Source of the DNA: Bacteroidales bacterium
Lineage (GTDB): Bacteria > Bacteroidota > Bacteroidia > Bacteroidales > WCHB1-69
DNA: 64,000 nt
Direction: 5' to 3'
NCBI GenBank assembly: GCA_045132055.1
Contig: JBGURP010000055.1
Location: forward strand, 104,372 to 168,371
Position 1 is the first letter of the stretch; each line of letters begins with the position of its first letter. Shown piece by piece: positions 37,474 to 55,720 of the stretch. Both the position numbers and the translations under genes were made by a program. Under the pieces are notes generated by a model. That model saw only the letters and a list, made by a program, of their open reading frames with translations, did no database searches and was not told the DNA's origin.

Positions 37474-37481
37474 AATAGCAT

Positions 37482-38360
37482 TTATTTGTAAAAAGACTTG
37501 ATAAGAGATGGTGTGTGTGCTCCTTTATCAAACCCCTCATATAATCTCGTGGAATTGGCAATCGATTTGCTTTTAAAACCATCTCGTAGGGTATTGAATT
37601 TTTTAGTGAAATTAGTTTCATTAATACGGCGACATTGAAAATCAGCAAAAGCTTCACTATAGGGATCTCCTTCTTTGGTACCGCCTTTAGGCCCCAACAC
37701 CAATCCGCCTCCAACTGTCAACATTGAAAAAAGATTAGCCTCCACCTCATTATGTATGGAAGCGCCTCCTTGTCCTTTCAATTCTTGATAACCATGAAAT
37801 AGTTCATGAGCCAGATAATCAGCATTATCTAATTGTCCATTCATATACATGGTTCCACCGTTGTTTCCATCTTTCTGAAATCGTCCAGTCCCATCATTTT
37901 TAAGGGATTCATTGGTAAATGTGAAAGTGGGTGAATCCTTCCCCGTCATTTCATCAATTACTGATTTACCGGCTTCTTTCCCATATATTTTATCAAGATT
38001 GTTCCATGCTGCCTGAACATTCTTGTCTGTGCTGTTGCATTGTTGCCCAGGAGTGAAAGTGTGTTCTCCATCCTCGCCTTGTATTACTATTGTTTCCCCA
38101 TTCGGATCCACCAGCTTAATGGGGTTGTTGGCACAATAGGTATATGGCGACAAATTCGGATATTTGTCACTCATCGGATCGACGCTCAGCCAGATGGACA
38201 AATCGGAGCTGTAATACCTTGAACCAAAGTAAGAAAAGCCGGTTTCGGAGTCCTTTTCTTTTGCGGAGAAGGTGAAACTTGCTGAAAACAAGGTTTTTAT
38301 GGGGTAATATGTTGATACTGGGGTGTTCATACGCCGTGAAATTACAAAATAATTGAACAT
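37482..38360 (-). CDS. Orphan Rhs C-terminal toxin cassette 1 (HExxH metallopeptidase-like tip)
   Basis: FTFSAKEKDSETGFSYFGSRYYSSDLSIWLSVDPMSDKYPNLSPYTYCANNPIKLVDPNGE, then a variable domain with AHELFHGYQ. The true start may be the internal Met at 38330. Confidence 0.8.
   Translation of the reverse strand: MFNYFVISRRMNTPVSTYYPIKTLFSASFTFSAKEKDSETGFSYFGSRYYSSDLSIWLSVDPMSDKYPNLSPYTYCANNPIKLVDPNGETIVIQGEDGEHTFTPGQQCNSTDKNVQAAWNNLDKIYGKEAGKSVIDEMTGKDSPTFTFTNESLKNDGTGRFQKDGNNGGTMYMNGQLDNADYLAHELFHGYQELKGQGGASIHNEVEANLFSMLTVGGGLVLGPKGGTKEGDPYSEAFADFQCRRINETNFTKKFNTLRDGFKSKSIANSTRLYEGFDKGAHTPSLIKSFYK
38096..38277 (-). repeat. Rhs core-end homology box, copy 3 of 7
   Basis: Contains a 43-nt exact direct match to the main rhs box (ggatatttgtcactcatcggatcgacgctcagccagatggaca). 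Confidence 0.9.
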
Positions 38361-38449: not shown

Positions 38450-38800
38450 TCATAGAACATGTGGTGAAATATTTATTACAATATTTTTTCCCTGTATAAT
38501 AGAATCGGGTGAATAATGAAGAATCAATTGAGAGGTATACCAATCTAAATAAAATGAAGTGTCTGTGGAGTTCTGGAATTTTTTAGAAATCATGTATGAA
38601 TCCCCGTCTTGAAGGTCTATTTGAAAACTCCCTAACACATCTCCTTGGATAGTAACGTCTATCCCAGTAATATTCAAATCTTCATCAAAACATATCGTAT
38701 CTGTCACTTCTGAACAAATAGTATCTATGAGAAATGACTGGGATGAATCATTCTCACAAGATGCTAATGCTAAAGAAGATATAAGCAAAACGATTGCCAT
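38450..38800 (-). CDS. Putative cognate immunity lipoprotein of the resident Rhs toxin tip
   Basis: The ATG lies 1 nt after the rhs stop (TAG-A-ATG). MAIVLLISSLALASC is a lipobox. 116 aa. Confidence 0.55.
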   Translation of the reverse strand: MAIVLLISSLALASCENDSSQSFLIDTICSEVTDTICFDEDLNITGIDVTIQGDVLGSFQIDLQDGDSYMISKKFQNSTDTSFYLDWYTSQLILHYSPDSIIQGKNIVINISPHVL

Positions 38801-38801
38801 T

Positions 38802-41800: not shown

Positions 41801-44800
41801 TTTCGTATGGAGCTATAATCACCGTAGTCCTGCCCAAAGCATCGTAGGAATACATCATGGCATTGCCATTGATGTCAACGGTTTCCGTAGGTTTCCCGAT
41901 TTTGCAGTCGTAGTTTGCTGTAGAAGAGTACCCGAGCGACAAGTTTTCAACCTTGACAGGATAAGTCCATAGGGTATCATCGTACTGGTATTTAAACTCC
42001 AGCCGCTGTCCGTTGTGGTTTTCAGGCAAAACCGACCATACAAGGTTTCCATACTGGTCATAACTAAACTCATAGTCGGCGGTTTGCGAGCTGTTATGGC
42101 GTTCAAGATGCTGAAGTTTACCAGTGGAATAGTAAGAGGCCGTTCGCTTCTGCACGGTGTGACCAGCGTGGTTGCTGACAATTATCTGCACTGGCAATGC
42201 AGTCATGTTGAGGGGCATTCCCACTGCATAGTCTATCTTTGCCCTGAACCATTCATCAAAATGAGTGGTATCGCCACAGTGTGTATATTCCGTTACATTC
42301 CGCCATCTGTCGTACAATCTCATCACTACAGAAGTGATCTGCGGTAATGAAAGTCCCCCATACCAGTTGGTGATAACGGACTCCTTGGCCACATAGACAT
42401 CACTGCGGGCACAGCCGCCATCGGCGACAACGCTGTCGGCAAAGTCGTGTAAGACGACATCGTACAGATGCTCCACGTATGGGTTGCCTGCAGTATCAAA
42501 CACGCAGTCGCGGGTCTTACGACCGCGTTTGGCGAAATCATGGTTGTTGTATTCTTCCACAGTGTATCGGTAGAGAGTATCTCCCCCTTCCGTGTTGTAT
42601 TGTCGCGTGGTTACGGTTCCGTATCCATAGTCCATGCGCTCGTACCGATCATGGTGAGGGTCGGCATAGACGAATTTTGTATGGGAGACAGATCCGGCCA
42701 AGGGGGAGTTCGGATCCTCCAAGGCCAAGGTGTCAAGATTCCAGGATCGTTGGGGCTTTTCATAGCATGGCTGCGAGAGGGCATAGTCCAGTTCTATTGT
42801 GCTACCAGTGAAGTTGGTTACCTTTTTCAAAAGGTTGGTCTTTCCAGCCTGGTTGTACCGGACTGACATGCTGTTTTCCGATGAAGATGTGACGTAATCC
42901 ACATAGCCGTCCCCGTTAATGTCGGTAAGTTGAACGCTGTCTTTGCTAAAACTTTTTCCATAAGGGGAACCTGAAATGCCCACACAGACTTTCAATATAC
43001 TCCAGAATGTGAATCCGAGTGTCACAGACAGGTCCACGGATTCGCTATACGACTTGCCATGGCTGATTTGCTGGATGGTCGTGACCGTATCCCAGCCGGA
43101 CCACCGGCCGGCACCTTTGTTGTACTTGACCCGTATGCCTGTCGAAATCTTCTCCAGTAAATCAGGAAGTCCGTCCCCGTTGAAGTCGGTCAGCATCTTA
43201 TCGGTTTGATTGCGGGAAAGGTTCACTCCGACACCGCCGCCGATACTTGCCTGTCCCACATTGAAATTTCCCCCTAAGCTCAACCCATAGTTCTGGCTGT
43301 TCCCTTCCCTCACTGCAGTCACGCCCCAATTTTCAAAGGGATTGAATCCGTAACCCATATTGAGGGCGACACCTCCGACAGCATTCACCTTGTCGGGCAG
43401 TCCGTCACCGTTCATGTCCATCCAAGTAAATGCGGTGTTGTCGCTACCTCCGCCAAGACTGGCTCCAACGTTGCCAGATCCATTGAAGCTGATTTTGGCA
43501 CCCTTGGGATTGTTGGAGGCGTTTCTGGAGGGTGTAGAATAACTCCCTCCGAAGTTTGCACCTTCGGAGATTGTGTTCGAAGACGACACAATCTGCACAT
43601 GCGAATCGAGACTGCTCAATGGGCCAATGCCTCCCCATGGTTGCGAATACTGAACATAAACTTGGCCAATGATGTCGGGATATTTGTCCCCGTTGAGATC
43701 CATGTAGTCTGTCAAGATGGTGTTTTCACCCGTTGAATGAGAAACCCCTACGGAAATTGGCACAACAGGAATGGAAAGACTCAAAGAGTGGTTCTTCAGT
43801 TTTGTCATGTTCTGTTTCCTGACAGTTTTCACTTCAAAGCCTTGAGGAACCACAGGCACGGGATGGTCATATTCCACGATGTCTGCAGTGATGCTGTCTG
43901 TCACATACTCTGGTATTCTGGTGTTGGACATAGTGTCACGGACAATATAGTTTATATTTCCGTATCCGACCCACGCACCGTGCCTGCTGTCAGGCTGCAT
44001 TTCCACCCAGCCAGTTCTTTGGCTTAGAGGGTTGTATCCACCTGCCGATGAAAATGCCTGCGTAATAGTGGACTGTTCTTGAGGATGATCGGTTTCCTGA
44101 CTCGGTTGGAAAGCGCGGATGGCAGCCGTGTCGGATTCTGCTTGTGTCTGGTCTGCAGGATGTGTTCGCAAATCCACCACAAGACGGGACAGTTTTATGA
44201 CAGAGTCCTTGATAGCAATCCCGCCGACAGTGTCGTTGTTGTTATAGGCAAACTGTCCCCAGCCCCTGTACAAAGGCCCGAAAAGCCAATGGTAAACCGA
44301 ATCAATGGGGGTTTGTTTATAATTGTTTACAATAGCTTGTACCGGCGGGTAATAGTGAATGGTGTCTGTCACAGGATTACCGTTGATGGTGTCGGGAAAC
44401 ATGTATTGGATATGCGGCCGTACGTCGAAAGAACCGTAATTGGTCGCCAACAAGATTAATCTTATATAATCATTCTCTTTCAAGGAATCACTCCTGTTGA
44501 TGGTTAGGCTTTGGTTTCCACGTAAATCATATGTGAGTGGCGTAAAACCAGTGTCTTTGCCTAATACGACTGTAAGAACTGCAGTGTCAGGAAGAAGTGA
44601 ACGGGGCAAACATTCAATTGTCATGGTGTACCGGGAACTATTTTTGTGCGCCTGGAAAAACATTTTTCCACTTACAAGATAGTCCTGCTCCGAATTATAA
44701 TGATATGCATCCAGCTGAACAACCGAATCGTTTTCAAAGCTCGTGTAGGTAATATCCTGTTCCCATTTCACCTTGTCAAAGGATCTGTTCTCACCCGAAA

Positions 44801-47800
44801 TGAGTCTGAACATTACGATGTCATTTTCTCGAACATTTACCCCTGTAATAGTGGTATCATGTATCACATGTATGCTGTCGGGGATGGTGTCTCGCACAAG
44901 GATTTCCGGTGTCGTGGAACTGTGAAGACGGTACTTTCCGTCAACACGTATGCCCCGGCACACTTGGATAGCATACTGCACACCGTCGCATCGCTTTGAT
45001 TGCGCATGGCTTCTGGAACTATCACTGAGCAGAGTGATACCAGACGAAATACTGACAGTACCGCTATGCTGTGCAACCCAGACCTTCACTGTCTCCAAAT
45101 CCGGATCTGAGGGAATAGGTGTACAATGGATAGATTTCCTATATATTTCCAAACATCCTGTTTCGCTATTGTGATTCATTCCTGTGGGATTACAGTCTGA
45201 ATGCCTGAACACACACTCGTACATGCCTGTATTCATGAGACTGTCTGACAATGCGGCGGCATAACTGCTATCACCAACCTCCTTAATTTCAATACATCTA
45301 TCAAACTCCCACTCCACGGTACAGGCCACGTTGTCATCAACCTCACCGTCGAAAATAATTCCCCCGCACTCCCCTGGTATCGTCACAATGGAATCCTCTG
45401 GGGCCGCCCCACCTTGAGAACTGACCATGGAATAATAATTCCGGAATTTGACAGTGTCATTTGTTGTGACATTAAAGTACACCCCATCGTCGGTCACAAT
45501 GTCCGGAAGTCCATCGCCGTTGACATCCGAAAAATACACGGAAGTAGTTGAAGTGGTCTTGGGCCAGCTTCCACTATACGAGCATCCTGCAGAGGCCTGT
45601 AAGCCCCAGGTGGTGGTGCTTCCTGTTTCAGTCAGAAAGTCTGTGACACCGACGACAGGCACTGCAGGGCCGTAATGGAAAGACGTTTCACTATCAGCAA
45701 TCTGTTTTCTGCAATAAAGTTTTTTTTCTGATTTGAACAGCTTGTCTGCAAGCCCATCGCCATTGAGGTCCACCAATGTGAGAATACCCTCGCTCTTGGA
45801 GCGGCTGTAATTGAAATTGCCGCCCACGCTAAAGGAAGTCAATGGGACCACGGGACCTATGCCGATGGTTGCAGTTCCACCGACATTCCAGCTTTTGCCT
45901 TTGGTGGCGCCCAAAGCAGTTGCACTGCCCTCATTACCCACATTAAACGCATTGGTAATGAAAAAACTATGAAGATCATCGTTGCTGCTGCTAAGGTTTA
46001 TGGATGTTGATGGACCGAACAGAGCATTCCCTGAAGGAGCATCAAAGTAGTCGAAATGGGTACGAGTCCCGGAGAATCCCAGCTGGTCCAACCTGGAAAG
46101 TTCAGTATTGCAACCGAAGAAATCCTGAATGTTGTCAATACGCACGACATCAGTCAGACGAGTTTTGTATTGAGATTCACGTTTGTTTTCAGTATAGATC
46201 ATATAGCGTCTGAACACCTCATCATCAAAAGATATCTCAATGTTACAAAGCTCTTCAGCTGTAACTTCCTTAAAACCCCTGTTGAAAGAGACTGTCATGT
46301 CATCCCTTCCCCCTTTTCTGACAAAATGAATCTTGTAACGCGAAGGTGCATCTTCATGATAGGTATAACAGATACTGTCTATGTAAATCTGCTTTCCCAT
46401 GACGCTGGCGTTGCTAACTCCCGGATGCTGTATCACAGAATAACAATATCTTACGCCGTTGCCCGAAGGATCCACACTTTCTGCCAGGGCCCAGTGGGCG
46501 ATGGCACCGGATGAGTTTCCAGCACCAGTGCGCAGCACACAGCTGTTGTTCACGCCATTGTCCAAAGCATACTTGCCGTAGTAGTCCGTCACGCCGTTCT
46601 TGTGCGTCACTGTCCACCAGTAGCTGTCGGGTCCGCCGCCGTGGCGCACGATGCTGTCGTAGGCCTCGTTCTTGCGCGGATAGAACTGTTCTTGGCCATC
46701 ATGGTCTAGGATATTCCTGTTTGTCCAGTGATTGGTGCGGTGCGGCATGTCACGGAACCTGCCCGCCACGCTGTCGTAAGATACCAGCTGTTCGCCCTCA
46801 AAAACATACACTTCGCTTTCCAAATCGCTGTCGTATCTCGGCACGCCCCAGCGTGTCTCCACTGTGATGGAGGGGATGGAGATGTCCCAGCCCACACCGA
46901 GCCAGCCGTTGCCGCCACTGCTGCTGTAAGTCAGCGCGAGGTTGGGCTGCATGCCCTGACGTCCGGCAGGAATCTCGATAGGATAGCTCAGGTTGGCCGT
47001 TCCCATGTTGTTGGCGGTCGGCGGCTGCATCAGCGTCAGCCCCTCCAGCGGGTCGGCAGCCTTCAGCTCCTTGATGCTCGTGGGCGTGTAGGCCGATGTC
47101 TCCGGCATCTCCGGGGTCTTCAGCACCGCGTTGATGAAGTCCAGCGGCGATTCGCCGCCGCCCTCGCCCTGCGCGGCCACGGACAACATGCCCTGCGCCT
47201 GCGCGAGCGCGTCCTGCGGGCCGACCATGGCGTCCTGCGTGTGCGGCAGGCCTTTATCCCACGGCCTGAACCGCGAGCAGACCAGCAACGCCTCCGTGTT
47301 CACCGAGTCGCGCTGGATGGCCACCCATCTTCGATACTGCCTGTCATAGACATAGGTCTGTATGTCATCCTCGGTGAAGCCCTGCGGCAGCAATGATGGG
47401 TCATAGGGCACTGCAATAATGAACTCTCCTGGAAGGGGATTCACACGGTAGCCTGCCGTCTGACCGTTCCCGTCAAACCCGCCCGTCACGTTCACCATGC
47501 CCGCGTCCAGGGGCGGAAGCTGCGAGGGCGTGAGCTCTGCCATCGCGCCGGATGAAAGCGCCAAAGGCGGCGCGTTCAATGCGGAATTTGGAATGGGAAA
47601 TGGGGAATGGTTCCCCGTTCCGATTTCTTCTTCCGGAATAGAGATGCAGTGCTTGACTGCGTTGACTTTCTGCAATCTAGCCGCCGGTTCGTTCAAGCTG
47701 TCGTTCAAAACGTTGAGTCCCGAATTGTAGCTATATGCCCTATAGGAGCGGGTGGATACACCTTCTTTTGCCGTGTCTATGGAGAACAGCATGGCAAGCA

Positions 47801-47843
47801 ACGCTGCAAGGACGGATAATATGGCCAGTAGATATTGTCTCAT
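38802..47843 (-). CDS. Giant Rhs/YD-repeat polymorphic toxin (SpvB/TcB-like N-domain, FG-GAP/VCBS repeats, RHS core, variable C-terminal toxin)
   Basis: 3013 aa. N-terminal signal/anchor; SpvB-type motif LTYSSSGGNGWLGVGWDISIPSI; at least five D(L/V/M/F/I)NGDG(L/Y)(A/P/V)D repeats; many YD repeats; RHS core end FTFSAKEKDTETGYSYFGSRYYSSDLSIWLSVDP...NPIKLVDPNGE; ~190-aa C-terminal tip. Confidence 0.93.
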   Translation of the reverse strand: MRQYLLAILSVLAALLAMLFSIDTAKEGVSTRSYRAYSYNSGLNVLNDSLNEPAARLQKVNAVKHCISIPEEEIGTGNHSPFPIPNSALNAPPLALSSGAMAELTPSQLPPLDAGMVNVTGGFDGNGQTAGYRVNPLPGEFIIAVPYDPSLLPQGFTEDDIQTYVYDRQYRRWVAIQRDSVNTEALLVCSRFRPWDKGLPHTQDAMVGPQDALAQAQGMLSVAAQGEGGGESPLDFINAVLKTPEMPETSAYTPTSIKELKAADPLEGLTLMQPPTANNMGTANLSYPIEIPAGRQGMQPNLALTYSSSGGNGWLGVGWDISIPSITVETRWGVPRYDSDLESEVYVFEGEQLVSYDSVAGRFRDMPHRTNHWTNRNILDHDGQEQFYPRKNEAYDSIVRHGGGPDSYWWTVTHKNGVTDYYGKYALDNGVNNSCVLRTGAGNSSGAIAHWALAESVDPSGNGVRYCYSVIQHPGVSNASVMGKQIYIDSICYTYHEDAPSRYKIHFVRKGGRDDMTVSFNRGFKEVTAEELCNIEISFDDEVFRRYMIYTENKRESQYKTRLTDVVRIDNIQDFFGCNTELSRLDQLGFSGTRTHFDYFDAPSGNALFGPSTSINLSSSNDDLHSFFITNAFNVGNEGSATALGATKGKSWNVGGTATIGIGPVVPLTSFSVGGNFNYSRSKSEGILTLVDLNGDGLADKLFKSEKKLYCRKQIADSETSFHYGPAVPVVGVTDFLTETGSTTTWGLQASAGCSYSGSWPKTTSTTSVYFSDVNGDGLPDIVTDDGVYFNVTTNDTVKFRNYYSMVSSQGGAAPEDSIVTIPGECGGIIFDGEVDDNVACTVEWEFDRCIEIKEVGDSSYAAALSDSLMNTGMYECVFRHSDCNPTGMNHNSETGCLEIYRKSIHCTPIPSDPDLETVKVWVAQHSGTVSISSGITLLSDSSRSHAQSKRCDGVQYAIQVCRGIRVDGKYRLHSSTTPEILVRDTIPDSIHVIHDTTITGVNVRENDIVMFRLISGENRSFDKVKWEQDITYTSFENDSVVQLDAYHYNSEQDYLVSGKMFFQAHKNSSRYTMTIECLPRSLLPDTAVLTVVLGKDTGFTPLTYDLRGNQSLTINRSDSLKENDYIRLILLATNYGSFDVRPHIQYMFPDTINGNPVTDTIHYYPPVQAIVNNYKQTPIDSVYHWLFGPLYRGWGQFAYNNNDTVGGIAIKDSVIKLSRLVVDLRTHPADQTQAESDTAAIRAFQPSQETDHPQEQSTITQAFSSAGGYNPLSQRTGWVEMQPDSRHGAWVGYGNINYIVRDTMSNTRIPEYVTDSITADIVEYDHPVPVVPQGFEVKTVRKQNMTKLKNHSLSLSIPVVPISVGVSHSTGENTILTDYMDLNGDKYPDIIGQVYVQYSQPWGGIGPLSSLDSHVQIVSSSNTISEGANFGGSYSTPSRNASNNPKGAKISFNGSGNVGASLGGGSDNTAFTWMDMNGDGLPDKVNAVGGVALNMGYGFNPFENWGVTAVREGNSQNYGLSLGGNFNVGQASIGGGVGVNLSRNQTDKMLTDFNGDGLPDLLEKISTGIRVKYNKGAGRWSGWDTVTTIQQISHGKSYSESVDLSVTLGFTFWSILKVCVGISGSPYGKSFSKDSVQLTDINGDGYVDYVTSSSENSMSVRYNQAGKTNLLKKVTNFTGSTIELDYALSQPCYEKPQRSWNLDTLALEDPNSPLAGSVSHTKFVYADPHHDRYERMDYGYGTVTTRQYNTEGGDTLYRYTVEEYNNHDFAKRGRKTRDCVFDTAGNPYVEHLYDVVLHDFADSVVADGGCARSDVYVAKESVITNWYGGLSLPQITSVVMRLYDRWRNVTEYTHCGDTTHFDEWFRAKIDYAVGMPLNMTALPVQIIVSNHAGHTVQKRTASYYSTGKLQHLERHNSSQTADYEFSYDQYGNLVWSVLPENHNGQRLEFKYQYDDTLWTYPVKVENLSLGYSSTANYDCKIGKPTETVDINGNAMMYSYDALGRTTVIIAPYEIDASKPYTIKMEYHPKNYGTTDIFNIGTIQSYARTFHYDPQHPTDDIATTVITDGLGRLLQTKKDAEIDGQEVSLVTGRVTYDCFGRTVEQYHPFVEDTALYALYNPYFAPATITSIKYDILDRQIRVELPTHEVTRMEYGFGNTGGKTVFSTTTTDAMNNSVQVLKGTLGQQLMQVAPYGTTTFFDYDCLGQLKKSTDPDGFETFYDYDMFGQMIHRKHPDAGNDYYEYDPAGNLTRHTNEMGENLEYKYYFNQLSDIFCSHYPEYNVHYNYGTSVDAVRNAVGKVISQEDASGWQTFSYGKLGEVTENTRTFTLPYENQPYTFDMRFVYDSWNRIDSMVYPDGEIVCYGYNSGGMLNSITGVKNGFPYKYLDSVRYNEFELKAAMYYGNGTKTFYKYDTLQRLRNLYSVTSANEPMQDIDYRYDSVSNITMIANNAGMLSNGLGGTYINEYQYDDMYRLDYSNGIWNGNHPVDYELDMEYKPNGRIVKKHLDADTYTQTPFSNNQAPVHCHNDYHYDNNSQPNTLAYIDNGPQQYFKWDVKGNMTQHINTLNNTDRRLCWDEQNRLLGVKDDGFLSYYQYDANGDRIYKLTGDFARQNRNGEWRYYYYMKRPTLYASPYLVTNPKGYTKHYYAENERIASRIGGGGLKYLDRNDNPEMFVAHKEHSIMLFDDVMECLDAQAEVQESLLNFLYEWKDIREEEKDCYWYHTDHLGSSSWITYTDGSAVQHLHYMPWGEDFVNQRITDYAARFTFSAKEKDTETGYSYFGSRYYSSDLSIWLSVDPMSDKYPSLSPYTYCANNPIKLVDPNGEDLTKPPLYNRIKSLNPQEKHILKYDIRFPTAIQVNSNAKLASSMAKKAFSGEGGKGGKTDAYRHAMWQALNVQSVGEKMTRKWSDAHEYSTPADEIETDLVMDIHNNDVGIEIGKQNPNASPKQLGEIIKQRIDNGDLIILEKDNTGKDVIKKSNGEPINQSEIRNKETIRKISNSIQDGVQISSDY
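39368..39548 (-). repeat. Rhs core-end homology box, copy 4 of 7 (in the full-length gene)
   Basis: Encodes FTFSAKEKD...VDPNGE. Positions 39427-39470 form a 44-bp perfect inverted match to 52699-52742. Confidence 0.92.
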
Positions 47844-47895
47844 AGATATTTTATTTCTTAATTCCTTAGTCCCTTGATTTCACAACTGTCGTCTG

Positions 47896-49476
47896 TCAGT
47901 TCACCACCATCTTGAGCGTTTTGCGCTCAGTGCCGGAGGCTATGTCGATCAGGTAGTTCCCGGCGGTCTGCACTTTGCCTGCGAAACGGTAACTGCTCTG
48001 CCCCTTGCCGTCCATTTTCAACAGCACCTTGCCATCTGCATCATACACAGTGACAAACACATCCTGTGCTTCGGGGTATATTATCCCCACAGTGAAGTTC
48101 CCGTGGTTAGGGTTGGGGTGCAGTTTGTAATGGGCGATTTGCAATGGTGAACTTTCAATTTGTGATTTGGAATGGGTAATGTACAATGATTCCTTATTGC
48201 AACCATTTGTTTGGCAGAGTGCTCCATCTCTTTCTGATTTTCTGTTTTCCATACCCCATTCTCCATTGGACTCCCCGTTTGCCGCCAGCGCCTTCGGCGT
48301 GTTGGTGTCCGGCATCGCCACGGCGAAGCAGAAGAAGTCACGGCCGTTGAGGTCGGTATCCCAGTATATGCCGTCGTACAGGCAGCGCCCTGCGGTGTCC
48401 GTGCCCGAACACTGTACCTGTTCCATTTCCCCTGCGGGGAATTCGCCCGTGCCGCTGCGGTCGATCAACAGGACAGGCGCGACGCTGTCCCGCACTGCCG
48501 CCGTGTCCAGCAGGATGAACGTGCCGTAGATGCTTGCGTCGCCCGTCACCTGCGCCATGCTGCGCCCGACAACCTCGTAGGTTTTCCCGTCCTGCGTGTA
48601 TATTGTGGAGACGGTGCGCAGACTATCCCTGCACCCGAATAGGATGAAATCCCCGTCAGAGATGGCTGCAGCATTGTCCTCGTTTGTGTTCGCGAGCTGG
48701 CCCATGCCGAAAACCGTCTGGCCGTCTGCAAAGTATGTCTGCTTCTGGCACAGCCCCGTGGAGTCGTCCCGGCCCACTCCTGCGATGGAAATGCAGTAAT
48801 CGGGATAGTCGGTGAAGTTCCAGATGACGTTCCTGCGGCTGTCGAGATAGTCGGTCTGCAAAAGGGTCACGCCGTATTTCACGGCCAGGTAGCTGATCCA
48901 CTGGATGACGGCGGTGTCGCCGATGCGGCTGCCGAAGTACATCGCTTCGGCGATGCGCCCGTCCAGCAGCAGGGAATCCGCCGCGCAGAGGGTCAGCACG
49001 GGGGCGCACACCTCGGGTGTCCGCCACGACTGCGAGAGGTAGTTGACAACGGGCTTCAGGCGGTTGGCGGTGTCGTAGGTGATCTGGCCGTTGTCGTTCA
49101 GGATGCGCTGCGTGGTCTGCCCGATGCGTTTGGCCGAGTCAACCTGCACCTGCCACAGCGCGTTCTCGCCGAGGGTGTCGTATGTCTCATACACCACAAT
49201 CACGTCCGCATGCCGCGAGTCGTTGATGCCCAGCGGCAGAGTGAAGGTCTCCGCGCCGCCGACCGCGAAGCATCTGTTGAAGTTCATGCGGGAGAAAGCG
49301 GCGGGCATTGCGCCCGATGACGGCACGGCGTCGAACCCGTTGCCGGAGACATCGTGCCACGACGATGTGCCGAGTGCCGCGCTGTCGGCGCGCAGCCACG
49401 CCACGGGGTGGACGATCTGCGCCTTGAGCTGGCAGGAAAGGGCGATTGCGGCAAAAAGGATCAGGGCTTTCTTCAT
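47896..49476 (-). CDS. T9SS C-terminal-domain (Por tail) secreted protein with a LamG-like N-terminal region
   Basis: Signal peptide, a WHDVSGNGFDA motif of LamG-type jelly rolls, and a C-terminal LHPNPNHGNFTV...KMVVN typical of T9SS sorting domains. It ends 52 nt upstream of rhs. Confidence 0.75.
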   Translation of the reverse strand: MKKALILFAAIALSCQLKAQIVHPVAWLRADSAALGTSSWHDVSGNGFDAVPSSGAMPAAFSRMNFNRCFAVGGAETFTLPLGINDSRHADVIVVYETYDTLGENALWQVQVDSAKRIGQTTQRILNDNGQITYDTANRLKPVVNYLSQSWRTPEVCAPVLTLCAADSLLLDGRIAEAMYFGSRIGDTAVIQWISYLAVKYGVTLLQTDYLDSRRNVIWNFTDYPDYCISIAGVGRDDSTGLCQKQTYFADGQTVFGMGQLANTNEDNAAAISDGDFILFGCRDSLRTVSTIYTQDGKTYEVVGRSMAQVTGDASIYGTFILLDTAAVRDSVAPVLLIDRSGTGEFPAGEMEQVQCSGTDTAGRCLYDGIYWDTDLNGRDFFCFAVAMPDTNTPKALAANGESNGEWGMENRKSERDGALCQTNGCNKESLYITHSKSQIESSPLQIAHYKLHPNPNHGNFTVGIIYPEAQDVFVTVYDADGKVLLKMDGKGQSSYRFAGKVQTAGNYLIDIASGTERKTLKMVVN

Positions 49477-49502
49477 GGCGGAATATATTTCTTGGATGAT
49501 TG

Positions 49503-49510
49503 CAAAGATA
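49503..49510 (-). promoter_or_regulatory. -7 promoter box (TATCTTTG on the minus strand) for the T9SS-protein/rhs operon
   Basis: The reverse complement of caaagata matches TAnnTTTG, 26 nt upstream of the ATG at 49476. Confidence 0.5.
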
Positions 49511-49540
49511 GCATTTTTTTAATCCGGTTGCATTTTTTTG

Positions 49541-50665
49541 TCAGAAACGGATTTTGTTCGCCGCCAGTATCTTTCTGGCATCCGTCACGTGCGTGTAGCG
49601 GTCAGTCATGGAGATTGAGTGGTGCCCGGCAAGGTCCTTGACGTACTTCGGGGGCATTCCCGATTCGAGCATCTCGGTGATGCCCGTGTCCTTGAGGGAG
49701 TAGAAATGGAACGTGGAGGGCAGGGAGAGGTGTTTCAGCATCCTGTGCCAGGCCTCGAACAGGTTTCGGGTGGTGTAGGACTTCGGGCCGGGTTTGAAAT
49801 GCCGGGAGAATATGAAAGTATGGGGAGAGAGCGTCTCCGCCCGCAGTTTCCTGAAGTGTCCGAGCACATCGTCGGACAGGGCTATCACACGTTCCTCATG
49901 GTTCTTCGACACGTTTGGCGGTATCCTGAGCATCCCCTCGTCAAAGTCTATGTCCCGCAGTTGGAGCATGAGTATCTCCTTGGGCCGCACCAGATGCTTG
50001 AAGCAGAGTTGCATAATGGCTATGTATTCCGTCATGCCTCTTTTCGTGAAGTAGTCGAGGATTTTTTTGCGCTCATGTTTTGGGATGGTTGTCCTATGTT
50101 TTTTTTCTTTCCTCTTGCCTTTGAACGGTTCGAAGGGGTTGGATGGCAGAAGACCGTCGCTGACAAAGGACCGGAACATGCTCTTCAGGAACTGGAGCAT
50201 GTTGTTGTAGGCGTACGCGCTTCTTCCGCCTTTGCCGTACTCCTCCAGCAGTTCGGCGGCCTGCTTGCCCGTGAAGTAGGCACAAAGCCAGTCGGACAGG
50301 CCTTTCTTCTCGCACCATGTGAGAAAGAACGCAAGCTTCGACTTGTAGCCCCGTGTCGAGTCCTTCCGGAGGGTTTCCTGTTTTTTGCGGTAGAAGTCTT
50401 CGGCGGCCTGCTCCACGGTTTGCGGTCTTCTGTTCGACTCCTCTTCCCCCGTCAGAGGGTTCCAGCCCGCGTAGAGCCGTCTGTTGGTCTCCGCGCACAG
50501 CAGGCGCGCATAGCGCAAGCGCTCGCGGCGGTCACGGATGCGGTTGCAGCGGATCCTTCTGCGCTTGAGCCTTCCGCTGACAGGGTCGAGTACGTGGTAG
50601 CTGACATAGACCTCCTTGTTGGAGGACACTTGTGCCGGGATGAAGTCGATGAATGGTGTTGTCAT
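49541..50665 (-). CDS. Tyrosine-type site-specific recombinase/integrase
   Basis: 374 aa. The C-terminal catalytic region has LRPKEIL (Arg), HFYSLKDTG and LAGHHSISMTDRYTHV (His/Arg/Tyr box). Confidence 0.9.
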   Translation of the reverse strand: MTTPFIDFIPAQVSSNKEVYVSYHVLDPVSGRLKRRRIRCNRIRDRRERLRYARLLCAETNRRLYAGWNPLTGEEESNRRPQTVEQAAEDFYRKKQETLRKDSTRGYKSKLAFFLTWCEKKGLSDWLCAYFTGKQAAELLEEYGKGGRSAYAYNNMLQFLKSMFRSFVSDGLLPSNPFEPFKGKRKEKKHRTTIPKHERKKILDYFTKRGMTEYIAIMQLCFKHLVRPKEILMLQLRDIDFDEGMLRIPPNVSKNHEERVIALSDDVLGHFRKLRAETLSPHTFIFSRHFKPGPKSYTTRNLFEAWHRMLKHLSLPSTFHFYSLKDTGITEMLESGMPPKYVKDLAGHHSISMTDRYTHVTDARKILAANKIRF

Positions 50666-50919
50666 GATGGTGAATTGAAAAGGTTAGGAATGCTGCCTTG
50701 CAAGCATCTTGCTTGCTGGAATAAATATGGTTATAATCGTATTTTGGTTTAAAACACATTATGGATAAATCCTTCGCGAAACCCTCCGGTGCATTGCCGT
50801 GGTGCAGAACTGGCGCAGCGGCACAGGTTCGCAAGCGGTTGTGGATGCGGCGTTCAGAAAATACATGGTGCAACATCGCGGCGCAAATATGGCCATTTTT
50901 TTCTTTTGCGAAAAAATCT

Positions 50920-50927
50920 TATTTTTG
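50920..50927 (+). promoter_or_regulatory. -7 promoter box (TATTTTTG) upstream of orphan cassette 4
   Basis: TAnnTTTG match 19 nt upstream of the ATG at 50947. Confidence 0.5.
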
Positions 50928-50946
50928 CCACGATAAGTTGTTGCGT

Positions 50947-51762
50947 ATGAATCAGCCTGTTACATATAGTAAAACATTTCTGCCCGACACGCTTGCGGAG
51001 ATTTTCACCTTCTCCGCAAAAGAGAAGGACGCAGAAACCGGCTATTCTTACTTTGGCTCAAGGTATTACAGCAGCGATCTGAGTATCTGGCTCAGCGTCG
51101 ATCCGCAGGCTTCGAAATATCCTTCTTTGAGTCCGTACGTGTATTGCGCGAATAACCCGATAAAGTTGATGGATCCGAATGGGGAAGATTATGAAACCAT
51201 TATAAATAAAGATAATAAAACCATAACCATTAAAGCAATATATTATGCAAAAGATTCCGATAAGAAAAACCTCCAAAAAGGACTTGATGCTTGGAATAGC
51301 CAATCCGGCAAATACACTTTCACTATAGAAAATGGTGAAAATGCAGGAACTTATACCATAAACTTTGAACTAACCATGGCAGAGAGTGACGGGACAAGTA
51401 GCCCTATCGATGGCATTTCGAATTCTTTCGAGATGGTTTCAGATAACATTGGTGGGCGAGGTCTAACTAACGACGGCCGTACTATTAAAGTAAACAATAA
51501 CGCTCCGGACAGGACGATTATTCACGAAATAGGTCATACATTAGGAAATGGAGAATTTAATCGCGGAGTAATGCTACAAGGAGGGAATAGTGACAAAATC
51601 TTAAAGGAAAACATATCAACTACGCTTAATCAAGCAGGCTTTCATAGTCTGGGTAATTTCTGTGGCTCTCAAATCACAGATCCACCATCACAATCATGCA
51701 ACACTTTTTGTAATCAAACCACTAATGAACCCATATATGGGATAATTAACAGAAAAAGATGA
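50947..51762 (+). CDS. Orphan Rhs C-terminal toxin cassette 4 (HExxH metallopeptidase-like tip)
   Basis: MNQPVTYSKTFLPDTLAEI leader, then FTFSAKEKDAETGYSYFGSRYYSSDLSIWLSVDPQASKYP...NPIKLMDPNGED, then a variable domain with IIHEIGHTLG. The upstream part of the track ORF is GC-rich non-coding-like sequence. Confidence 0.8.
   Translation: MNQPVTYSKTFLPDTLAEIFTFSAKEKDAETGYSYFGSRYYSSDLSIWLSVDPQASKYPSLSPYVYCANNPIKLMDPNGEDYETIINKDNKTITIKAIYYAKDSDKKNLQKGLDAWNSQSGKYTFTIENGENAGTYTINFELTMAESDGTSSPIDGISNSFEMVSDNIGGRGLTNDGRTIKVNNNAPDRTIIHEIGHTLGNGEFNRGVMLQGGNSDKILKENISTTLNQAGFHSLGNFCGSQITDPPSQSCNTFCNQTTNEPIYGIINRKR
51004..51186 (+). repeat. Rhs core-end homology box, copy 5 of 7 (inverted relative to the main gene)
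   Basis: Starts with the exact 26-mer TTCACCTTCTCCGCAAAAGAGAAGGA. Confidence 0.9.
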
Positions 51763-52454
51763 GGACTCTTGTTTCAGTTTGCCAAATTGTATTTTTTTCC
51801 TTCTTGTTATATTCTTGCACAACAACAGCACATTATCAGAAATATAACAAAGCAATTGAAGAATTGACAAAACAGTATGCAAATAATATAGACACTGCGT
51901 CCTCAGTCATTCAAGTAACTGGAGTGGTCAAAGTCGATTCTTTCTTCATCCATTATAATAGAAATATTGATCCTGACAAACTATGGAAATACAATATTTT
52001 CAAAACAAAATCTGATGTGCTTTACTTCAGTACAACCCCATGCGATGTCATTGATTGCGGAGCCCACCAAAAACTCTTTAAAGAATGTATTTTTGATTCA
52101 ACATCTTTTGTCATTATTTCCTCTAGTGACTTTTTAAGAAAACATATTATTCCATTCGTTAAAGACACCATGCTGAAAGAGAATTTAAGAGTTATTGTTG
52201 ACAATGATGACATACTACCTATAGGTGTCGTAAATTATAAAAGAATTTTTTTTAAGCACAATAAATATGCTTGTGATGTGGCCTTCTATAAAACAAATTG
52301 TTTTTTGCGCGTACAAATGCCTGTATGGTTTTTCAATTTGACATACTCTAAACATAGTTGCCCACCCATATTTTATTTTTTAGGAGAAGAAGAATACTAT
52401 GACCTATATTTGAATGTGATTGTGCCCTTACCAGCGGATATTCAAGACATCTAA
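51759..52454 (+). CDS. Putative immunity lipoprotein for cassette 4
   Basis: The ATGA overlap with the toxin stop suggests translational coupling. Lipobox FLLYSC. Confidence 0.5.
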   Translation: MRTLVSVCQIVFFSFLLYSCTTTAHYQKYNKAIEELTKQYANNIDTASSVIQVTGVVKVDSFFIHYNRNIDPDKLWKYNIFKTKSDVLYFSTTPCDVIDCGAHQKLFKECIFDSTSFVIISSSDFLRKHIIPFVKDTMLKENLRVIVDNDDILPIGVVNYKRIFFKHNKYACDVAFYKTNCFLRVQMPVWFFNLTYSKHSCPPIFYFLGEEEYYDLYLNVIVPLPADIQDI

Positions 52455-52509
52455 AAATACAATTTTGTATCTTCCACATATTGCTAATTAACCTTAATTA
52501 ATTATTTTG

Positions 52510-52517
52510 TAACTTTG
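52510..52517 (+). promoter_or_regulatory. Cassette promoter box (TAACTTTG), 4 nt upstream of the orphan 5 ATG
   Basis: The TTTTGTAACTTTGCAGC-ATG context is shared with 36790-36797 (minus strand) and 55529-55536. Confidence 0.55.
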
Positions 52518-52521
52518 CAGC

Positions 52522-53388
52522 ATGAATAATGGTAGATTTGTAGCATATTATTCAGCAACAGTCTGCGATGGGAATCCATATTGCAAAAGCAAGAGTATGT
52601 CTTTGGATATAGCAGGAACTTTCACCTTCTCCGCAAAAGAGAAAGATGCCGAAACCGGCTTTTCTTACTTTGGCTCAAGATATTACAGCTCCGACCTATC
52701 CATCTGGCTGAGCGTCGATCCGATGAGTGACAAATATCCCTCACTGAGTCCGTATGCTTACTGTGCGAATAACCCAATAAAGTTGGTGGATCCGAATGGG
52801 GAAGAGATTGGAGATTTTTATGATCAATGGGGAAGAAAAATCGGTTCAGATGGACGTGCTGATGATAATGTTTTCATTGTAAGTGATCAAGCTTCTCAAA
52901 ACAAGATAAAAGAGAATAGGCGAAATCACGTAAATACCAATTCAGCCGATGTAAAAGTTGACGTGACTACCACGTATAATGTCTTAAGTGAGGCTTCAGA
53001 TGTTTATGAAAGAACTGTAAAAAACGGAGGATATAACGAAGAAGCATCAGCATTACCTACAGATGGAGGATCCGCTGATTGGGAAAGAAAATCTGGAGTT
53101 AATGAACATAGTGTTGAAGTCCCAATACCCCAAGGAGATGTCCTTATTCATTCTCACCCGTTAAAAAAAAGGAATCCATGTGATTACACATCCCCGAAAG
53201 TGATAAGTGATAAAGATAAATCACATTTTGAAAAATTTAAATTAAATATTGTAGTCGGAAATGACGGAGGTAACTGTAGCGGTGGAGTATGGTCTGGCCG
53301 CAAACCAACAGCATCTTTTTATGACTCGAGCAGCAAAAATCTCATAAATTTACTTTTCGATGTGGTGAAGAAAATAGTCAACCGATAA
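52522..53388 (+). CDS. Orphan Rhs C-terminal toxin cassette 5 (JAB/MPN-like tip)
   Basis: 33-aa leader, then FTFSAKEKDAETGFSYFGSRYYSSDLSIWLSVDPMSDKYPSLSPYAYCANNPIKLVDPNGEE, then a variable domain with IHSHP...SDKD. Confidence 0.8.
   Translation: MNNGRFVAYYSATVCDGNPYCKSKSMSLDIAGTFTFSAKEKDAETGFSYFGSRYYSSDLSIWLSVDPMSDKYPSLSPYAYCANNPIKLVDPNGEEIGDFYDQWGRKIGSDGRADDNVFIVSDQASQNKIKENRRNHVNTNSADVKVDVTTTYNVLSEASDVYERTVKNGGYNEEASALPTDGGSADWERKSGVNEHSVEVPIPQGDVLIHSHPLKKRNPCDYTSPKVISDKDKSHFEKFKLNIVVGNDGGNCSGGVWSGRKPTASFYDSSSKNLINLLFDVVKKIVNR
52621..52806 (+). repeat. Rhs core-end homology box, copy 6 of 7 (inverted relative to the main gene)
   Basis: Positions 52699-52742 are the perfect reverse complement of 39427-39470 (44 bp). 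Confidence 0.92.
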
Positions 53389-53399
53389 TTAGTACCATT

Positions 53400-53990
53400 A
53401 TGTTGAACAGTAATAAGATCTTTCAAAAAATATTTGTATTATTGTTTTTATTTTGGCCATTTACAATTATTTGCCAAAATAACAATCCAAATGATCCGTT
53501 AGACACGTACAGTGCTCCTTCATTCGCCTATTTAACCGTAATAGATGGGAAAATTCCATATTCTGTTCTTTCAAAACTATCGTTTAAGCACAATAAGCTA
53601 AACGACACTATAATATATAATTGCTATTATATCAATAACAGACATTATTCAGAAAATCTGATGATGCTGGATTCCATACCCGATTCAGTCACAGTTTCGA
53701 TAGATGTTTTTTTTGAAGAACCAATAGGATATAATAAAGCTAAAATGCATCATTATCATGATGAAATGCCTCTTGGTAGACTTAAACTTGTACAGATATT
53801 ATCAATCACCAATTTCCGTCACAAACAATACTATATGCATTATGTTTTTGATCCACCATTAAGAACATATCCTTTGTATGAAAGACGCTTTGGCAATAAG
53901 AATAAATTTTATTCGAGAGTGTTCTCATGTTTTTATCCGTATTCATATAACAAATGGTCAAAAGGAGGAAGAACAAAACCGTCATATTAA
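53400..53990 (+). CDS. Putative immunity protein for cassette 5 (secreted)
   Basis: Starts 11 nt after the toxin stop and has a signal peptide (FVLLFLFWPFTIICQ). Confidence 0.5.
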   Translation: MLNSNKIFQKIFVLLFLFWPFTIICQNNNPNDPLDTYSAPSFAYLTVIDGKIPYSVLSKLSFKHNKLNDTIIYNCYYINNRHYSENLMMLDSIPDSVTVSIDVFFEEPIGYNKAKMHHYHDEMPLGRLKLVQILSITNFRHKQYYMHYVFDPPLRTYPLYERRFGNKNKFYSRVFSCFYPYSYNKWSKGGRTKPSY

Positions 53991-54068
53991 GGTGAAAGTT
54001 TAATACTGATAAATCGTGGTCATCAACTCGACTCATTAAATTCTGTATCATTACTTTATTTAATCCTT

Positions 54069-54899
54069 ATGACTGCTGTCGCCATGTATAATCACATGAT
54101 TCTTGCCAATAGTTTCACCTTCTCCGCAAAAGAGAAGGATACCGAGACGGGGTATTCCTACTTTGGTGCGCGGTATTACTCTTCTGATTTATCTATTTGG
54201 CTGAGTGTGGATCCGATGAGTGACAAATATCCGTCACTTTCGCCTTATACTTACTGTGCGAACAACCCGATAAAACTTACTGATCCTGACGGAAGATGGA
54301 TTCCAGGACTGGATGACGAAGGGAATGTGACATACACGGCAGAGAAAGGTGACAGTTATGACACTTTCATCAAACAGTTCGACTGTAGAGATGCTGATGG
54401 AAATAATCGGGGCAGAGATATTTTTTCGAATGCTGGTTTAAAAAAAGATGGAAGTGAAATAAAAGAAGGTTCCGTAATAAAAGGAGATGCTGTTAAACAA
54501 GTGACAGGCAATGATGTGTTGAAAGGAAATTGGAATAACATGACGGATGACCAAAAAGCTTCTCAAATAAAATTCGCTCTTGATTATGGAGAAAAACACA
54601 AGACTACGATTGGAAATTCCTATGCGATAGATCTGAATGAATTCATAAATGATTTTGGCTCATCTTATAGCGGTATAAGTTTGAACAATGTGCAAATCCC
54701 CGACAAAAATACAGGAACAGCGATTGTCAACATGAGGCTTTGGCCAAAGGAAGGATTGACAGATAGTCGAGGTCGAATACCCATACGCTGGAGGTCACAA
54801 TCTGGAGGAGAAAATTATAATACCAAGTATTATTATAGTGCTAAAAATCCAAATGCGCGGAATCCTTTGCCGGCAATTGGAATTACTCGTTGTAAATAA
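54069..54899 (+). CDS. Orphan Rhs C-terminal toxin cassette 6 (tip with a LysM-like segment)
   Basis: FTFSAKEKDTETGYSYFGARYYSSDLSIWLSVDPMSDKYPSLSPYTYCANNPIKLTDPDG, then a variable domain beginning with YTAEKGDSYDTFIKQF...LKKDGSEIKEGSVI (LysM-like pattern). Confidence 0.75.
   Translation: MTAVAMYNHMILANSFTFSAKEKDTETGYSYFGARYYSSDLSIWLSVDPMSDKYPSLSPYTYCANNPIKLTDPDGRWIPGLDDEGNVTYTAEKGDSYDTFIKQFDCRDADGNNRGRDIFSNAGLKKDGSEIKEGSVIKGDAVKQVTGNDVLKGNWNNMTDDQKASQIKFALDYGEKHKTTIGNSYAIDLNEFINDFGSSYSGISLNNVQIPDKNTGTAIVNMRLWPKEGLTDSRGRIPIRWRSQSGGENYNTKYYYSAKNPNARNPLPAIGITRCK
54114..54292 (+). repeat. Rhs core-end homology box, copy 7 of 7 (inverted relative to the main gene)
   Basis: Starts with the exact 26-mer TTCACCTTCTCCGCAAAAGAGAAGGA. 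Confidence 0.9.
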
Positions 54900-54907
54900 A
54901 TCCCATT

Positions 54908-55507
54908 ATGAAATTCACCATATTATTACTATTCATATCTTTATCAGTTTTTGTATCTGCTCAACAAACAAAAATTGACACGATTAACATATCAATCGTA
55001 AAATCTAATTATCCGTTAATAGCAAAAACGGAAGATTTACATTTTATTCCAGATGTTCGACATTGGCATAGTTGTTTTAATGTGAAAGGTCAACTTTACC
55101 CTTCGCACAGTTCAGATTCTTTTTACGTCTTCTATGCAAATCAAATATCTGCAGACAAATATAAATTATCCTATCTTGAAACGGGCTCTGATGCGCGATT
55201 GGAATACATCTGGTTGAAAAAGAATAAAAAATTCTGGATGGATTATCGCGGATTAATTTTACGAAATAATACATCTTTAAGTGATGTCAATATTTTTTTT
55301 AAATATGACGAGAGTGAAGCAGAATACGGCATAGGCCCTTTAATCATAGGAAATAGATGCAAAAATATCCCACAGTACATTCTCTCTTTCAGTACAGGCG
55401 AACCAAATAACACTAAAATCACTTTGATTTTTGACAGGAAAAAACGCCTTAAAATCATACATATGGACTACTATCATCCATCTAATTTAATATTAAGACG
55501 CCAATGA
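54908..55507 (+). CDS. Putative immunity protein for cassette 6 (secreted)
   Basis: Starts 8 nt after the toxin stop and has a signal peptide (MKFTILLLFISLSVFVSAQQ). Confidence 0.5.
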   Translation: MKFTILLLFISLSVFVSAQQTKIDTINISIVKSNYPLIAKTEDLHFIPDVRHWHSCFNVKGQLYPSHSSDSFYVFYANQISADKYKLSYLETGSDARLEYIWLKKNKKFWMDYRGLILRNNTSLSDVNIFFKYDESEAEYGIGPLIIGNRCKNIPQYILSFSTGEPNNTKITLIFDRKKRLKIIHMDYYHPSNLILRRQ

Positions 55508-55528
55508 TTGTATCAAATGGATTTTTTG

Positions 55529-55536
55529 TAACTTTG
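55529..55536 (+). promoter_or_regulatory. Cassette promoter box (TAACTTTG), 4 nt upstream of the truncated leader ORF
   Basis: TTTTTTGTAACTTTGCCAC-ATG, the same architecture as at 52510 and 36790. Confidence 0.5.
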
Positions 55537-55540
55537 CCAC

Positions 55541-55720
55541 ATGAAAAGCTGTTGGTTAGAAGCATATTATCCGGCAAAGGCACACTGTGAGAAGCCAGCT
55601 CGCAGGTGGTATGATATGCTGTTTTTATATATGGAAAGTGATGTGAGTCAATTCTTTAGTAAATCATCTATCCCTTTCAGCTTCAAAGTGATTGCTGATA
55701 GTTTCGCCCCAGGTCTCTGA
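55541..55720 (+). pseudogene. Truncated orphan-cassette leader (cassette remnant ending at the homology-box position)
   Basis: The 59-aa ORF MKSCWLEAYYPAKAHCEKPARRWYDM...SSIPFSFKVIAD aligns with the orphan 2 leader MKSDSLVSYYPEMACNGNSYRRCWSM...SSRFTFSAKEKD. It loses homology exactly where the box should begin. Confidence 0.6.

Follow-up and report, generated by a model that had tools for sequence, protein, structure and literature searches.

A candidate Rhs toxin-tip shufflon: facing arrays of toxin–immunity cassettes around a recombinase-linked delivery gene in a Bacteroidales genome

The subject of this report is an Rhs toxin locus that occupies positions 33708–55720 of a 64,000-nucleotide (nt) stretch of DNA, hereafter the window, from contig JBGURP010000055.1 of a Bacteroidales bacterium. 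The original prediction had flagged 49541–55720 as a recombinase with a cassette array resembling an integron-like cluster of acquired immunity genes, of the rAID kind (recombinase-associated acquired interbacterial defence). That segment covers half of the locus, and a mirror-image array at 33708–38830 lies outside it. We argue that the whole is probably a shufflon for Rhs toxin tips, in which inversion at a short site would exchange the C-terminal toxin of one very large delivery protein together with its immunity gene.

The minus strand carries, in order, a gene for a tyrosine recombinase, a gene for a DUF8202 protein with a type IX secretion system (T9SS) sorting domain, a gene for a 3013-amino-acid (aa) SpvB/TcdB/Rhs protein and three pairs of tip and immunity genes. 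On the plus strand, divergent from the recombinase just as had been claimed, stand three intact tip open reading frames (ORFs) of 276–333 aa, each followed by an ORF of 196–231 aa. GC content falls from 0.54 in the recombinase to 0.31–0.40 in this array (51000–55500); the DUF8202 and Rhs genes, both downstream of the recombinase and co-directional with it, have a GC content of 0.45–0.64. The plus-strand array had been placed directly beside the Rhs gene, which is incorrect: the recombinase and the DUF8202/T9SS gene intervene, and the Rhs gene is on the opposite strand. The features are as follows.

33708..34331, minus strand: immunity-like gene of cassette tipC, directly downstream of tipC; 207 aa with a signal-peptide-like N-terminus; no Pfam match.
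34441..35268, minus strand: orphan tip C, 275 aa, made up of a short leader, the Rhs core-end repeat and a toxin with a weak Toxin-JAB1 match; core site 35201–35217.
35282..35917, minus strand: immunity-like gene of cassette tipB, an ORF of 211 aa.
35856..36785, minus strand: orphan tip B, 309 aa, Peptidase_M91 (PF14891, E 9e-13); core site 36634–36650; TAACTTTG box in the leader.
36847..37473, minus strand: immunity-like gene of cassette tipA, an ORF of 208 aa.
37482..38360, minus strand: orphan tip A, 292 aa, with an HELFHG motif and a weak M91 match; core site 38260–38276.
38450..38830, minus strand: immunity-like gene of the presently expressed tip, 126 aa, overlapping the Rhs stop codon.
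38802..39531, minus strand: cassette now attached to the Rhs gene, comprising the remainder of the core-end repeat and a DUF6973 tip (PF22322, E 9e-22).
39532..39548, minus strand: core recombination site in the full-length Rhs gene, TTCACCTTCTCCGCAAA; the expression-site junction, as indicated by junction mapping in relatives.
39549..47843, minus strand: Rhs body with signal peptide, SpvB, FG-GAP, TcdB_midN and RHS repeats; with the attached tip it forms the 3013-aa protein (gene 38802–47843).
47896..49476, minus strand: DUF8202 protein with a T9SS C-terminal sorting domain, found between recombinase and Rhs in related loci.
49541..50665, minus strand: tyrosine recombinase, the proposed invertase, 374 aa (PF00589, E 5e-25).
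50666..51003, plus strand: fixed leader adjoining the recombinase; presumed recombinase promoter region, TATTTTTG box, and an ATG reading into the first inverted cassette.
50761..51762, plus strand: orphan tip 1, HEIGH metallopeptidase-like, 65% identical to the tip of the full-length Rhs protein P0177.
51004..51020, plus strand: core site belonging to cassette 1, in the opposite orientation to that in the Rhs gene.
51759..52454, plus strand: immunity-like gene 1, 231 aa; also carried by six further contigs, which end at the flanking repeats.
52522..53388, plus strand: orphan tip 2, 288 aa; core site 52621–52637; TAACTTTG box in the leader.
53400..53990, plus strand: immunity-like gene 2, 196 aa.
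54069..54899, plus strand: orphan tip 3, 276 aa; core site 54114–54130.
54908..55507, plus strand: immunity-like gene 3 (imm3), 199 aa.
55508..55720, plus strand: terminal trailer with a TAACTTTG box and a leader-like 59-aa ORF, lacking both core site and toxin.

The large gene has the properties of an Rhs polymorphic toxin – SpvB, TcdB_midN and RHS_repeat domains, a DUF6973 tip, the core end FTFSAKEKD...DPNG and an immunity-like ORF overlapping its stop codon – and the toxin and immunity roles are predicted from sequence. The orphan tips had been described as complete toxins. This is reasonable, the six orphan toxin domains being 34–65% identical to the C-terminal tips of full-length Rhs proteins elsewhere. 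Among them, tipB alone (Peptidase_M91) rises above the Pfam cut-off. Matches for tip1 (HEIGH, M57-like), tipA and tipC are sub-threshold, and the Pfam search gave no family match for tip2 or tip3.

All seven tips, the attached one and the six orphans, open with a repeat of about 186 nt that encodes the Rhs core end and whose start is abrupt. In peptide terms it reads FTFSAKEKD...SIWLSVDP...NNPIKLVDPNG, the end of the Rhs shell up to its DPxG motif, after which come some 190 unique aa. The first 17 nt of this repeat, TTCACCTTCTCCGCAAA, occur in seven exact copies, four on the minus and three on the plus strand, and nowhere else in the window, where 0.02 would be expected by chance. Minus- and plus-strand repeats are inverted with respect to one another across the central block of recombinase, DUF8202 gene and Rhs body, and are 80–89% complementary. 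The site lies within coding sequence and not in spacers; each copy stands in the same reading frame of the repeat; its cassette side is conserved and its leader side unrelated; and the T that precedes the first codon of the repeat is conserved although its own codon varies. Synonymous-site conservation is raised at codons 2–4 of the repeat, with a few other codons equally uniform. A symmetric palindrome, CCTTCTC-CGCAAAA-GAGAAGG, was considered as the core and is not relied on: its right arm varies synonymously in most copies.

The promoter-like box that the original prediction had rightly seen in several units is TAACTTTG. In the leaders of tip2 and tipB it stands a few bases upstream of the ATG, and it recurs in the trailer after imm3; the tipA leader has a variant of it, and tip1 has TATTTTTG before an internal ATG. 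The leader boxes resemble the Bacteroides-type -7 box. What had been taken for a fourth, truncated unit (55541–55720) is homologous to the leaders of tip2 and tipB and amounts to a leader remnant, with neither recombination site nor toxin. In two of the related loci used for comparison (mostly metagenome contigs, denoted by L-numbers throughout), L018 and L020, leaders of the TCCCTATTCCCT type directly adjoin the sites.

Evidence that loci of this geometry undergo inversion came from the comparison of close relatives. L092 and L093, obtained from two samples of one study, encode an identical 3060-aa Rhs protein, and their central 13 kb are colinear, differing at four positions if the end repeats are left aside. 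Inverting the right array of L093 gives the left array of L092 (99.98% identity), and the PdxA/IF2/NusA chromosomal flank that lies downstream of Rhs in one locus lies upstream of the recombinase in the other. The same inversion relationship holds between L128 and L096 around an AckA flank. A third instance is provided by a single cassette, C55, which is the expressed tip in L092, L093 and L094 and the first silent, inverted orphan in L142: from the site onward the silent copy matches the expressed copies without a mismatch over 260 nt, and the upstream sequence is unrelated.

In order to follow re-pairing, the sequence upstream of each site was labelled leader and that downstream cassette. 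Among the relatives the recombinase-side leader (labelled L42) is joined to four different cassettes and the end of the Rhs body to three; by this comparison leaders and cassettes re-pair freely. Within clusters of Rhs proteins at 90% identity, bodies that are 98–100% identical over their last 400 residues bear unrelated tips, and small polymorphisms of the repeat travel with the tip and not with the body. The cassette sets of six relatives (L092, L093, L142, L128, L095 and L096) are permuted and in part different, and arrays reach six cassettes in other loci as against three on each side in the window. In the lineage of the window itself, L089, L090 and L091, with recombinases 94% and Rhs proteins 91% identical to those of the window, share the end of its Rhs body exactly and then diverge, at about nt 23 of the repeat, into a Peptidase_M91 tip; L162, 98% identical to the plus-strand array, has the tip2 leader and core, then a different, tipB-like cassette, then tip3 and imm3, the junction of the position-2 cassette lying at the core. 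Neither the altered cassette of L162 nor the permuted sets of the six relatives are compatible with a static array, one of the two findings that the original prediction had named as refuting it. An apparent case of different arrays beside an identical recombinase (L002 and L003) was dropped once mapping with hidden Markov models showed the arrays to be the same and the gene calls to differ.

The position of the exchange can be narrowed further. Between L092 and L093 the switch falls within TTTCACCTTCTCCGCAAA. Across 28 pairs that share a leader and differ in cassette, the first mismatch is always at nt 2–29 of the repeat, and the five pairs that share a cassette and differ in leader are identical through the entire repeat. 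Of 18 clean pairs, 11 contain, further into the repeat, a stretch of identity that is longer still (up to 73 nt) and was never used. Exchange thus appears confined to the first 14–17 nt or so of the repeat and has a site-specific look; that longer identical runs go unused is not predicted by general homologous recombination.

A site-specific recombinase gene is linked to these sites. Recombinases 39–94% identical to that of the window keep one gene order – inverted tip array, recombinase, DUF8202, giant Rhs, array – and relatives at least 47% identical with enough flank are all in the same Rhs context; the hosts of such loci are uncultured Bacteroidales of rumen and herbivore gut. In 46 loci the first inverted site lies 235–341 nt upstream of the recombinase start codon, many contigs ending within that repeat. 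Co-occurrence was counted on metagenome loci collected by way of DUF8202 rather than the recombinase, with at least 5 kb of upstream sequence required: inverted sites are present in all 13 loci that have the recombinase and in none of the 14 that lack it.

Variation among these loci deserves mention in its own right. Neither recombinase nor inverted array is found in L098, L103, L105, L120, L131, L133, L136, L137, L146, L150 and L153; L096 and L129, relatives of L092, also lack the recombinase and have a LytTR regulator gene upstream in its place. In L005–L007, L014, L016, L017, L107, L114, L123 and L124 a divergent LytTR-family regulator gene and an ORF of about 149 aa lie between recombinase and DUF8202. 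A recombinase clade at 39–43% identity (L029, L031, L035, L037, L045) has inverted Rhs-end arrays that begin 250–272 nt upstream; here homology between cassettes sets in some 19–23 codons later, around ..ARYY.., without the TTCACCTTCTCCGCAAA core, which suggests a different site co-varying with the enzyme. TTCACCT-like strings in the leaders of L031 and L037 lie in low-complexity sequence and were not taken as sites. Around more distant recombinase homologues (L021–L088) no long inverted repeats were found.

The foregoing bears directly on the possibility that this is a classical Rhs orphan-cassette locus, in which occasional RecA-dependent homologous recombination between the 186-nt repeats exchanges tips, as in Salmonella, and the recombinase is a bystander. 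Arrays of orphan tips and immunity genes that retain the core end are a known hallmark of rhs loci, and recombinase-less loci of the same family exist. Some orphans, moreover, carry 130–460 aa of Rhs body upstream of the site (L093 4228–5600, L095 ~852, L111 ~4574, L127 ~566, L142 ~1077, L147 ~284), suggesting homology-driven events; these longer remnants on some inverted-array orphans look like the outcome of a different kind of event from the core exchanges. What such recombination does not predict is exchange limited to the first 17 nt or so despite longer identical runs deeper in the repeat, inverted arrays solely in the company of the recombinase, or a spacing from recombinase to first site that stays fixed across 39–94% identity. 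We consider this account unlikely.

The toxin-tip shufflon, by comparison, draws these observations together. One short site occurs in both orientations around and inside one gene; a site-specific recombinase gene is linked to the sites; arrangements derived by inversion exist, in relatives only (L092/L093, L128/L096, L142/L092); and a constant body is fused in frame to alternative 3′ ends. In the mechanism that we propose, the central block (39549–51003) is bounded by oppositely oriented core sites at the 5′ edge of the repeat, and the linked tyrosine recombinase would exchange a site on one side with an inverted site on the other, thereby flipping the block and trading tails between the two arrays of cassettes. 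Were the Rhs copy to recombine with any one of the plus-strand copies, the inverted segment would measure 11.5–14.6 kb and contain the Rhs body, DUF8202 and the recombinase; taking place at the in-gene Rhs site, the reaction would place the body in frame with a different cassette, made up of core-end repeat, toxin and cognate immunity gene, and the delivered toxin would change. With every cassette retaining its immunity gene behind a promoter-like box, cells would be immune to their switched siblings. Silent cassettes would presumably be transcribed enough to keep all immunity proteins present; a switching population would need them. That the strain of the window itself switches is an inference, as is any rate of switching.

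It is possible, if doubtful, that the in-gene site does more than this. Beyond inversion it might act as a cassette-exchange point, where the recombinase would also take out and insert whole toxin–immunity cassettes and pass them among strains and species, so that the locus would be both a shufflon and an integron-like collector whose immunity genes also defend against neighbours firing the same toxins. Three observations hint at such exchange. L092 lacks three cassettes (C53–C51) that L142 has between the same leader and cassette, and the junction is in the core; cassette C54 is missing from L093 precisely where a terminal half-site, TTTCACCTT, abuts the chromosomal flank at the array end (L092 ~21583; L093 ~4204–4222); and near-identical tips are found on the Rhs bodies of two 90%-identity clusters, the representatives of which are 91% and 48% identical to the Rhs protein of the window.

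Several points count against a programmed shufflon. No inversion variant of the window's own strain was found in exact-protein look-ups with the recombinase, the immunity protein of cassette 1, the main immunity protein and the Rhs protein, which returned at most short contigs, broken at the repeats. Cassettes of the strain occur in the Logan runs SRR25030090, ERR15279203-5, SRR15093095 and SRR32996439. What the relatives show could be infrequent rearrangements in the course of evolution and not a programmed switch, and the pairs used for junction mapping share ancestry and are not independent events. L092 and L093 differ in cassette content as well as orientation; a single inversion is insufficient to relate them, and the differences point to additional events of loss or gain between direct sites. 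The recombinase retains Arg I, His III and the nucleophile Tyr357, yet a family-wide alignment places an invariant Lys (K325) at the XerC/XerD Arg II position and Tyr (Y322) at His II; its role as catalyst we infer from linkage. About half of the related DUF8202/Rhs loci lack the recombinase, which shows that it is not needed for the toxin system itself. Finally, synonymous conservation in the core is raised without being unique within the repeat, and argues for the site rather faintly.

A separate observation concerns assembly: L163–L167 are five independent short-read contigs of about 1.5–1.7 kb, each comprising exactly one cassette and breaking in the repeats at both ends. Assemblies systematically fragment such loci.

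A second alternative is the one initially favoured, a rAID-1 or polyimmunity-type array produced by integron-like capture of foreign immunity genes with toxin remnants and serving mainly for defence. To count as rAID-1, a cluster must have at its 5′ end an XerD-like recombinase whose identity to BF9343_RS08045 exceeds 44%, two or more genes downstream of it in the same direction, a GC content of at most 41%, orphan immunity genes and, between genes, conserved repetitive motifs that recall integron sites (Ross et al. 2019, bioRxiv 10.1101/471110; PMC12247911). Toxin cassettes never interrupt polyimmunity loci, according to Zhang et al. (2012, PMC3482391). There is some resemblance. The recombinase adjoins a low-GC array, low GC being the one defining property of rAID-1 clusters that the locus was found to display; close relatives differ in the cassettes that they contain, the junctions falling at the site and some of the changes being losses or gains between direct sites; and the same toxin types recur across divergent Rhs lineages. 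The array, however, is divergent from the recombinase, and it is DUF8202 and Rhs, with their higher GC, that are co-directional with it. Each immunity gene is preceded by an intact tip with an Rhs core end, so that there is no uninterrupted run of orphan immunity genes, and the same cassettes are expressed tips in relatives. The spacers carry only the promoter-like box, and a search of them for attC-like sequences found no attC-like folding or hairpins.

Nor do the relatives of the recombinase point towards rAID. Among the best 120, which reach 38% identity, the few that have a source name are metagenome-assembled genomes of uncultured Bacteroidales, and no named Bacteroides appears. The best 80 genome loci (to 28% identity) belong almost entirely to uncultured Bacteroidales and other Bacteroidota living in the guts of herbivores and other animals, with no Bacteroides, Parabacteroides or Paraprevotella among them, and the 80 closest genome loci without Rhs sites contain no co-directional low-GC array. 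Measured against an integron (IntI integrase, attI and attC sites, Pc) the locus also falls short, the spacers lacking attC-like folds and the IntI models scoring far below cut-off on the recombinase (37 bits against 265, 20 against 435). No curated NCBIfam family is reached by the recombinase. Its nearest annotated relatives are Porphyromonas prophage integrases at 31–33% identity, so that it does not cluster with ordinary integrases of phages or of integrative and conjugative elements. A rAID-1 or polyimmunity-type array is very improbable. From the original prediction there survives the view that recombinase and dynamic cassette array form one functional unit, without its assignment to the rAID or polyimmunity class; its caveat that the array might be an offensive tip reservoir was nearer the truth than a defensive array. 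As between the two, the locus is probably an offensive shufflon rather than a defence-only rAID array.

A mobile island carrying the entire Rhs locus, with the recombinase as its integrase and the repeats unrelated to its activity, is scarcely credible: the prophage integrases at 31–33% identity, a terminal half-site abutting the chromosome and an Rhs locus more diverged between L092 and L095 (92–95% DNA identity) than its adjacent chromosomal flanks (98.6–99%) would fit, but neither a tRNA nor an att-like duplication was found at the locus ends, the recombinase is mid-locus and not at an end, L092, L093 and L095 have the locus at the same chromosomal position with a rearranged interior, and the junctions map to the in-gene site. 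The divergence between L092 and L095 may mean that the Rhs locus evolves faster or is exchanged between strains.

Viewed as a shufflon, the locus resembles, in its working parts, the R64/IncI1 shufflon (Rci, sfx, PilV). Each has several short sites between which multiple inversions take place, an unchanging 5′ gene body to which one or another 3′ segment is joined in frame, and a tyrosine recombinase encoded next to the array. The sfx sites of R64 are asymmetric, with one side conserved, and the site described here has the same asymmetric appearance, conserved on the cassette side alone. The differences are considerable: the target is an interbacterial toxin rather than an adhesin, each segment brings its own immunity gene, what would turn over between the two facing arrays is the 11.5-kb body together with the recombinase, that recombinase fits no curated family and has no assignment to Rci, and the site is embedded in a conserved coding repeat. 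The Rhs and CdiA systems with orphan cassettes, known from C-terminal displacement, are similar in that a full-length gene is succeeded by pairs of orphan tip and immunity gene in which the core end is preserved, and in that recombination there, the core end being conserved, replaces toxin and immunity gene as one. The known cases involve general homologous recombination between direct repeats (Koskiniemi et al. 2014, PMC3967940; Zhang et al. 2012, PMC3482391). The present locus has half of its cassettes in inverted orientation and a dedicated recombinase linked to them, and its exchanges are confined to a site of about 17 nt.

rAID-1 and polyimmunity loci are likewise found in Bacteroidales, and in them a tyrosine recombinase adjoins a low-GC array of small genes, immunity genes among them, the content of which varies between strains. 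Their genes are co-directional with the recombinase and immunity-only, with intergenic motifs, unlike the toxin and immunity pairs, divergent array, in-gene site and tie to a delivery gene seen here. The inverting hsdS genes of Type I restriction-modification systems and the Bacteroides lipoprotein and SusC–SusD shufflons (Milman et al. 2023, PMC9881135) share a tyrosine recombinase by inverted repeats inside coding sequence, and one expressed gene with silent partial copies; the segments here are complete toxin–immunity modules in long arrays (three plus three, and elsewhere up to six). Integrons resemble the locus in having a tyrosine recombinase by an array of promoter-poor cassettes and in the apparent gain and loss of cassettes between direct sites, and differ from it in recombinase family, in their attC hairpins and in that the main reaction observed here is inversion.

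The usual view of polymorphic toxins is that they diversify slowly, by chance events of homologous recombination with silent cassettes. Shufflons are themselves well known; what would be new is one that acts on polymorphic-toxin cassettes, and full-text literature searches found no published Rhs or toxin shufflon. A systematic survey of gene-altering inversions does not include toxins or Rhs among its target families, with no mention of either (Milman et al. 2023, PMC9881135), and the 2012 survey of polymorphic toxins reports recombinases only beside polyimmunity loci and inversions never (Zhang et al. 2012, PMC3482391). If our interpretation is correct, a dedicated invertase that re-tips a 3000-aa Rhs protein makes toxin identity switchable in the manner of pilus or restriction specificity, which would explain the retention of full toxin–immunity pairs on both strands and would bear on kin discrimination in dense gut and rumen communities. 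The 17-nt site with its one recombinase would also constitute a compact natural tool for the in-frame swapping of protein C-termini. For annotation, a recombinase next to a low-GC array of small genes in Bacteroidales would not always signify rAID.

Certain features of the neighbouring sequence remain to be recorded. The DUF8202/T9SS-tail protein is 65–86% identical across loci, as against 48–91% for the Rhs body, and is far better conserved than either that body or the recombinase; it may be a surface partner of the toxin. An antisense ORF of 377 aa (49619–50752, plus strand) spans the entire recombinase gene, and in L089 and L090 gene callers took the equivalent ORF (366 aa), thereby masking the recombinase. 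Short tandem repeats of the GGGAAT/TGGGGAA type occur near the locus, at 32131–32198, 47575–47614 and 48140–48193 of the window.

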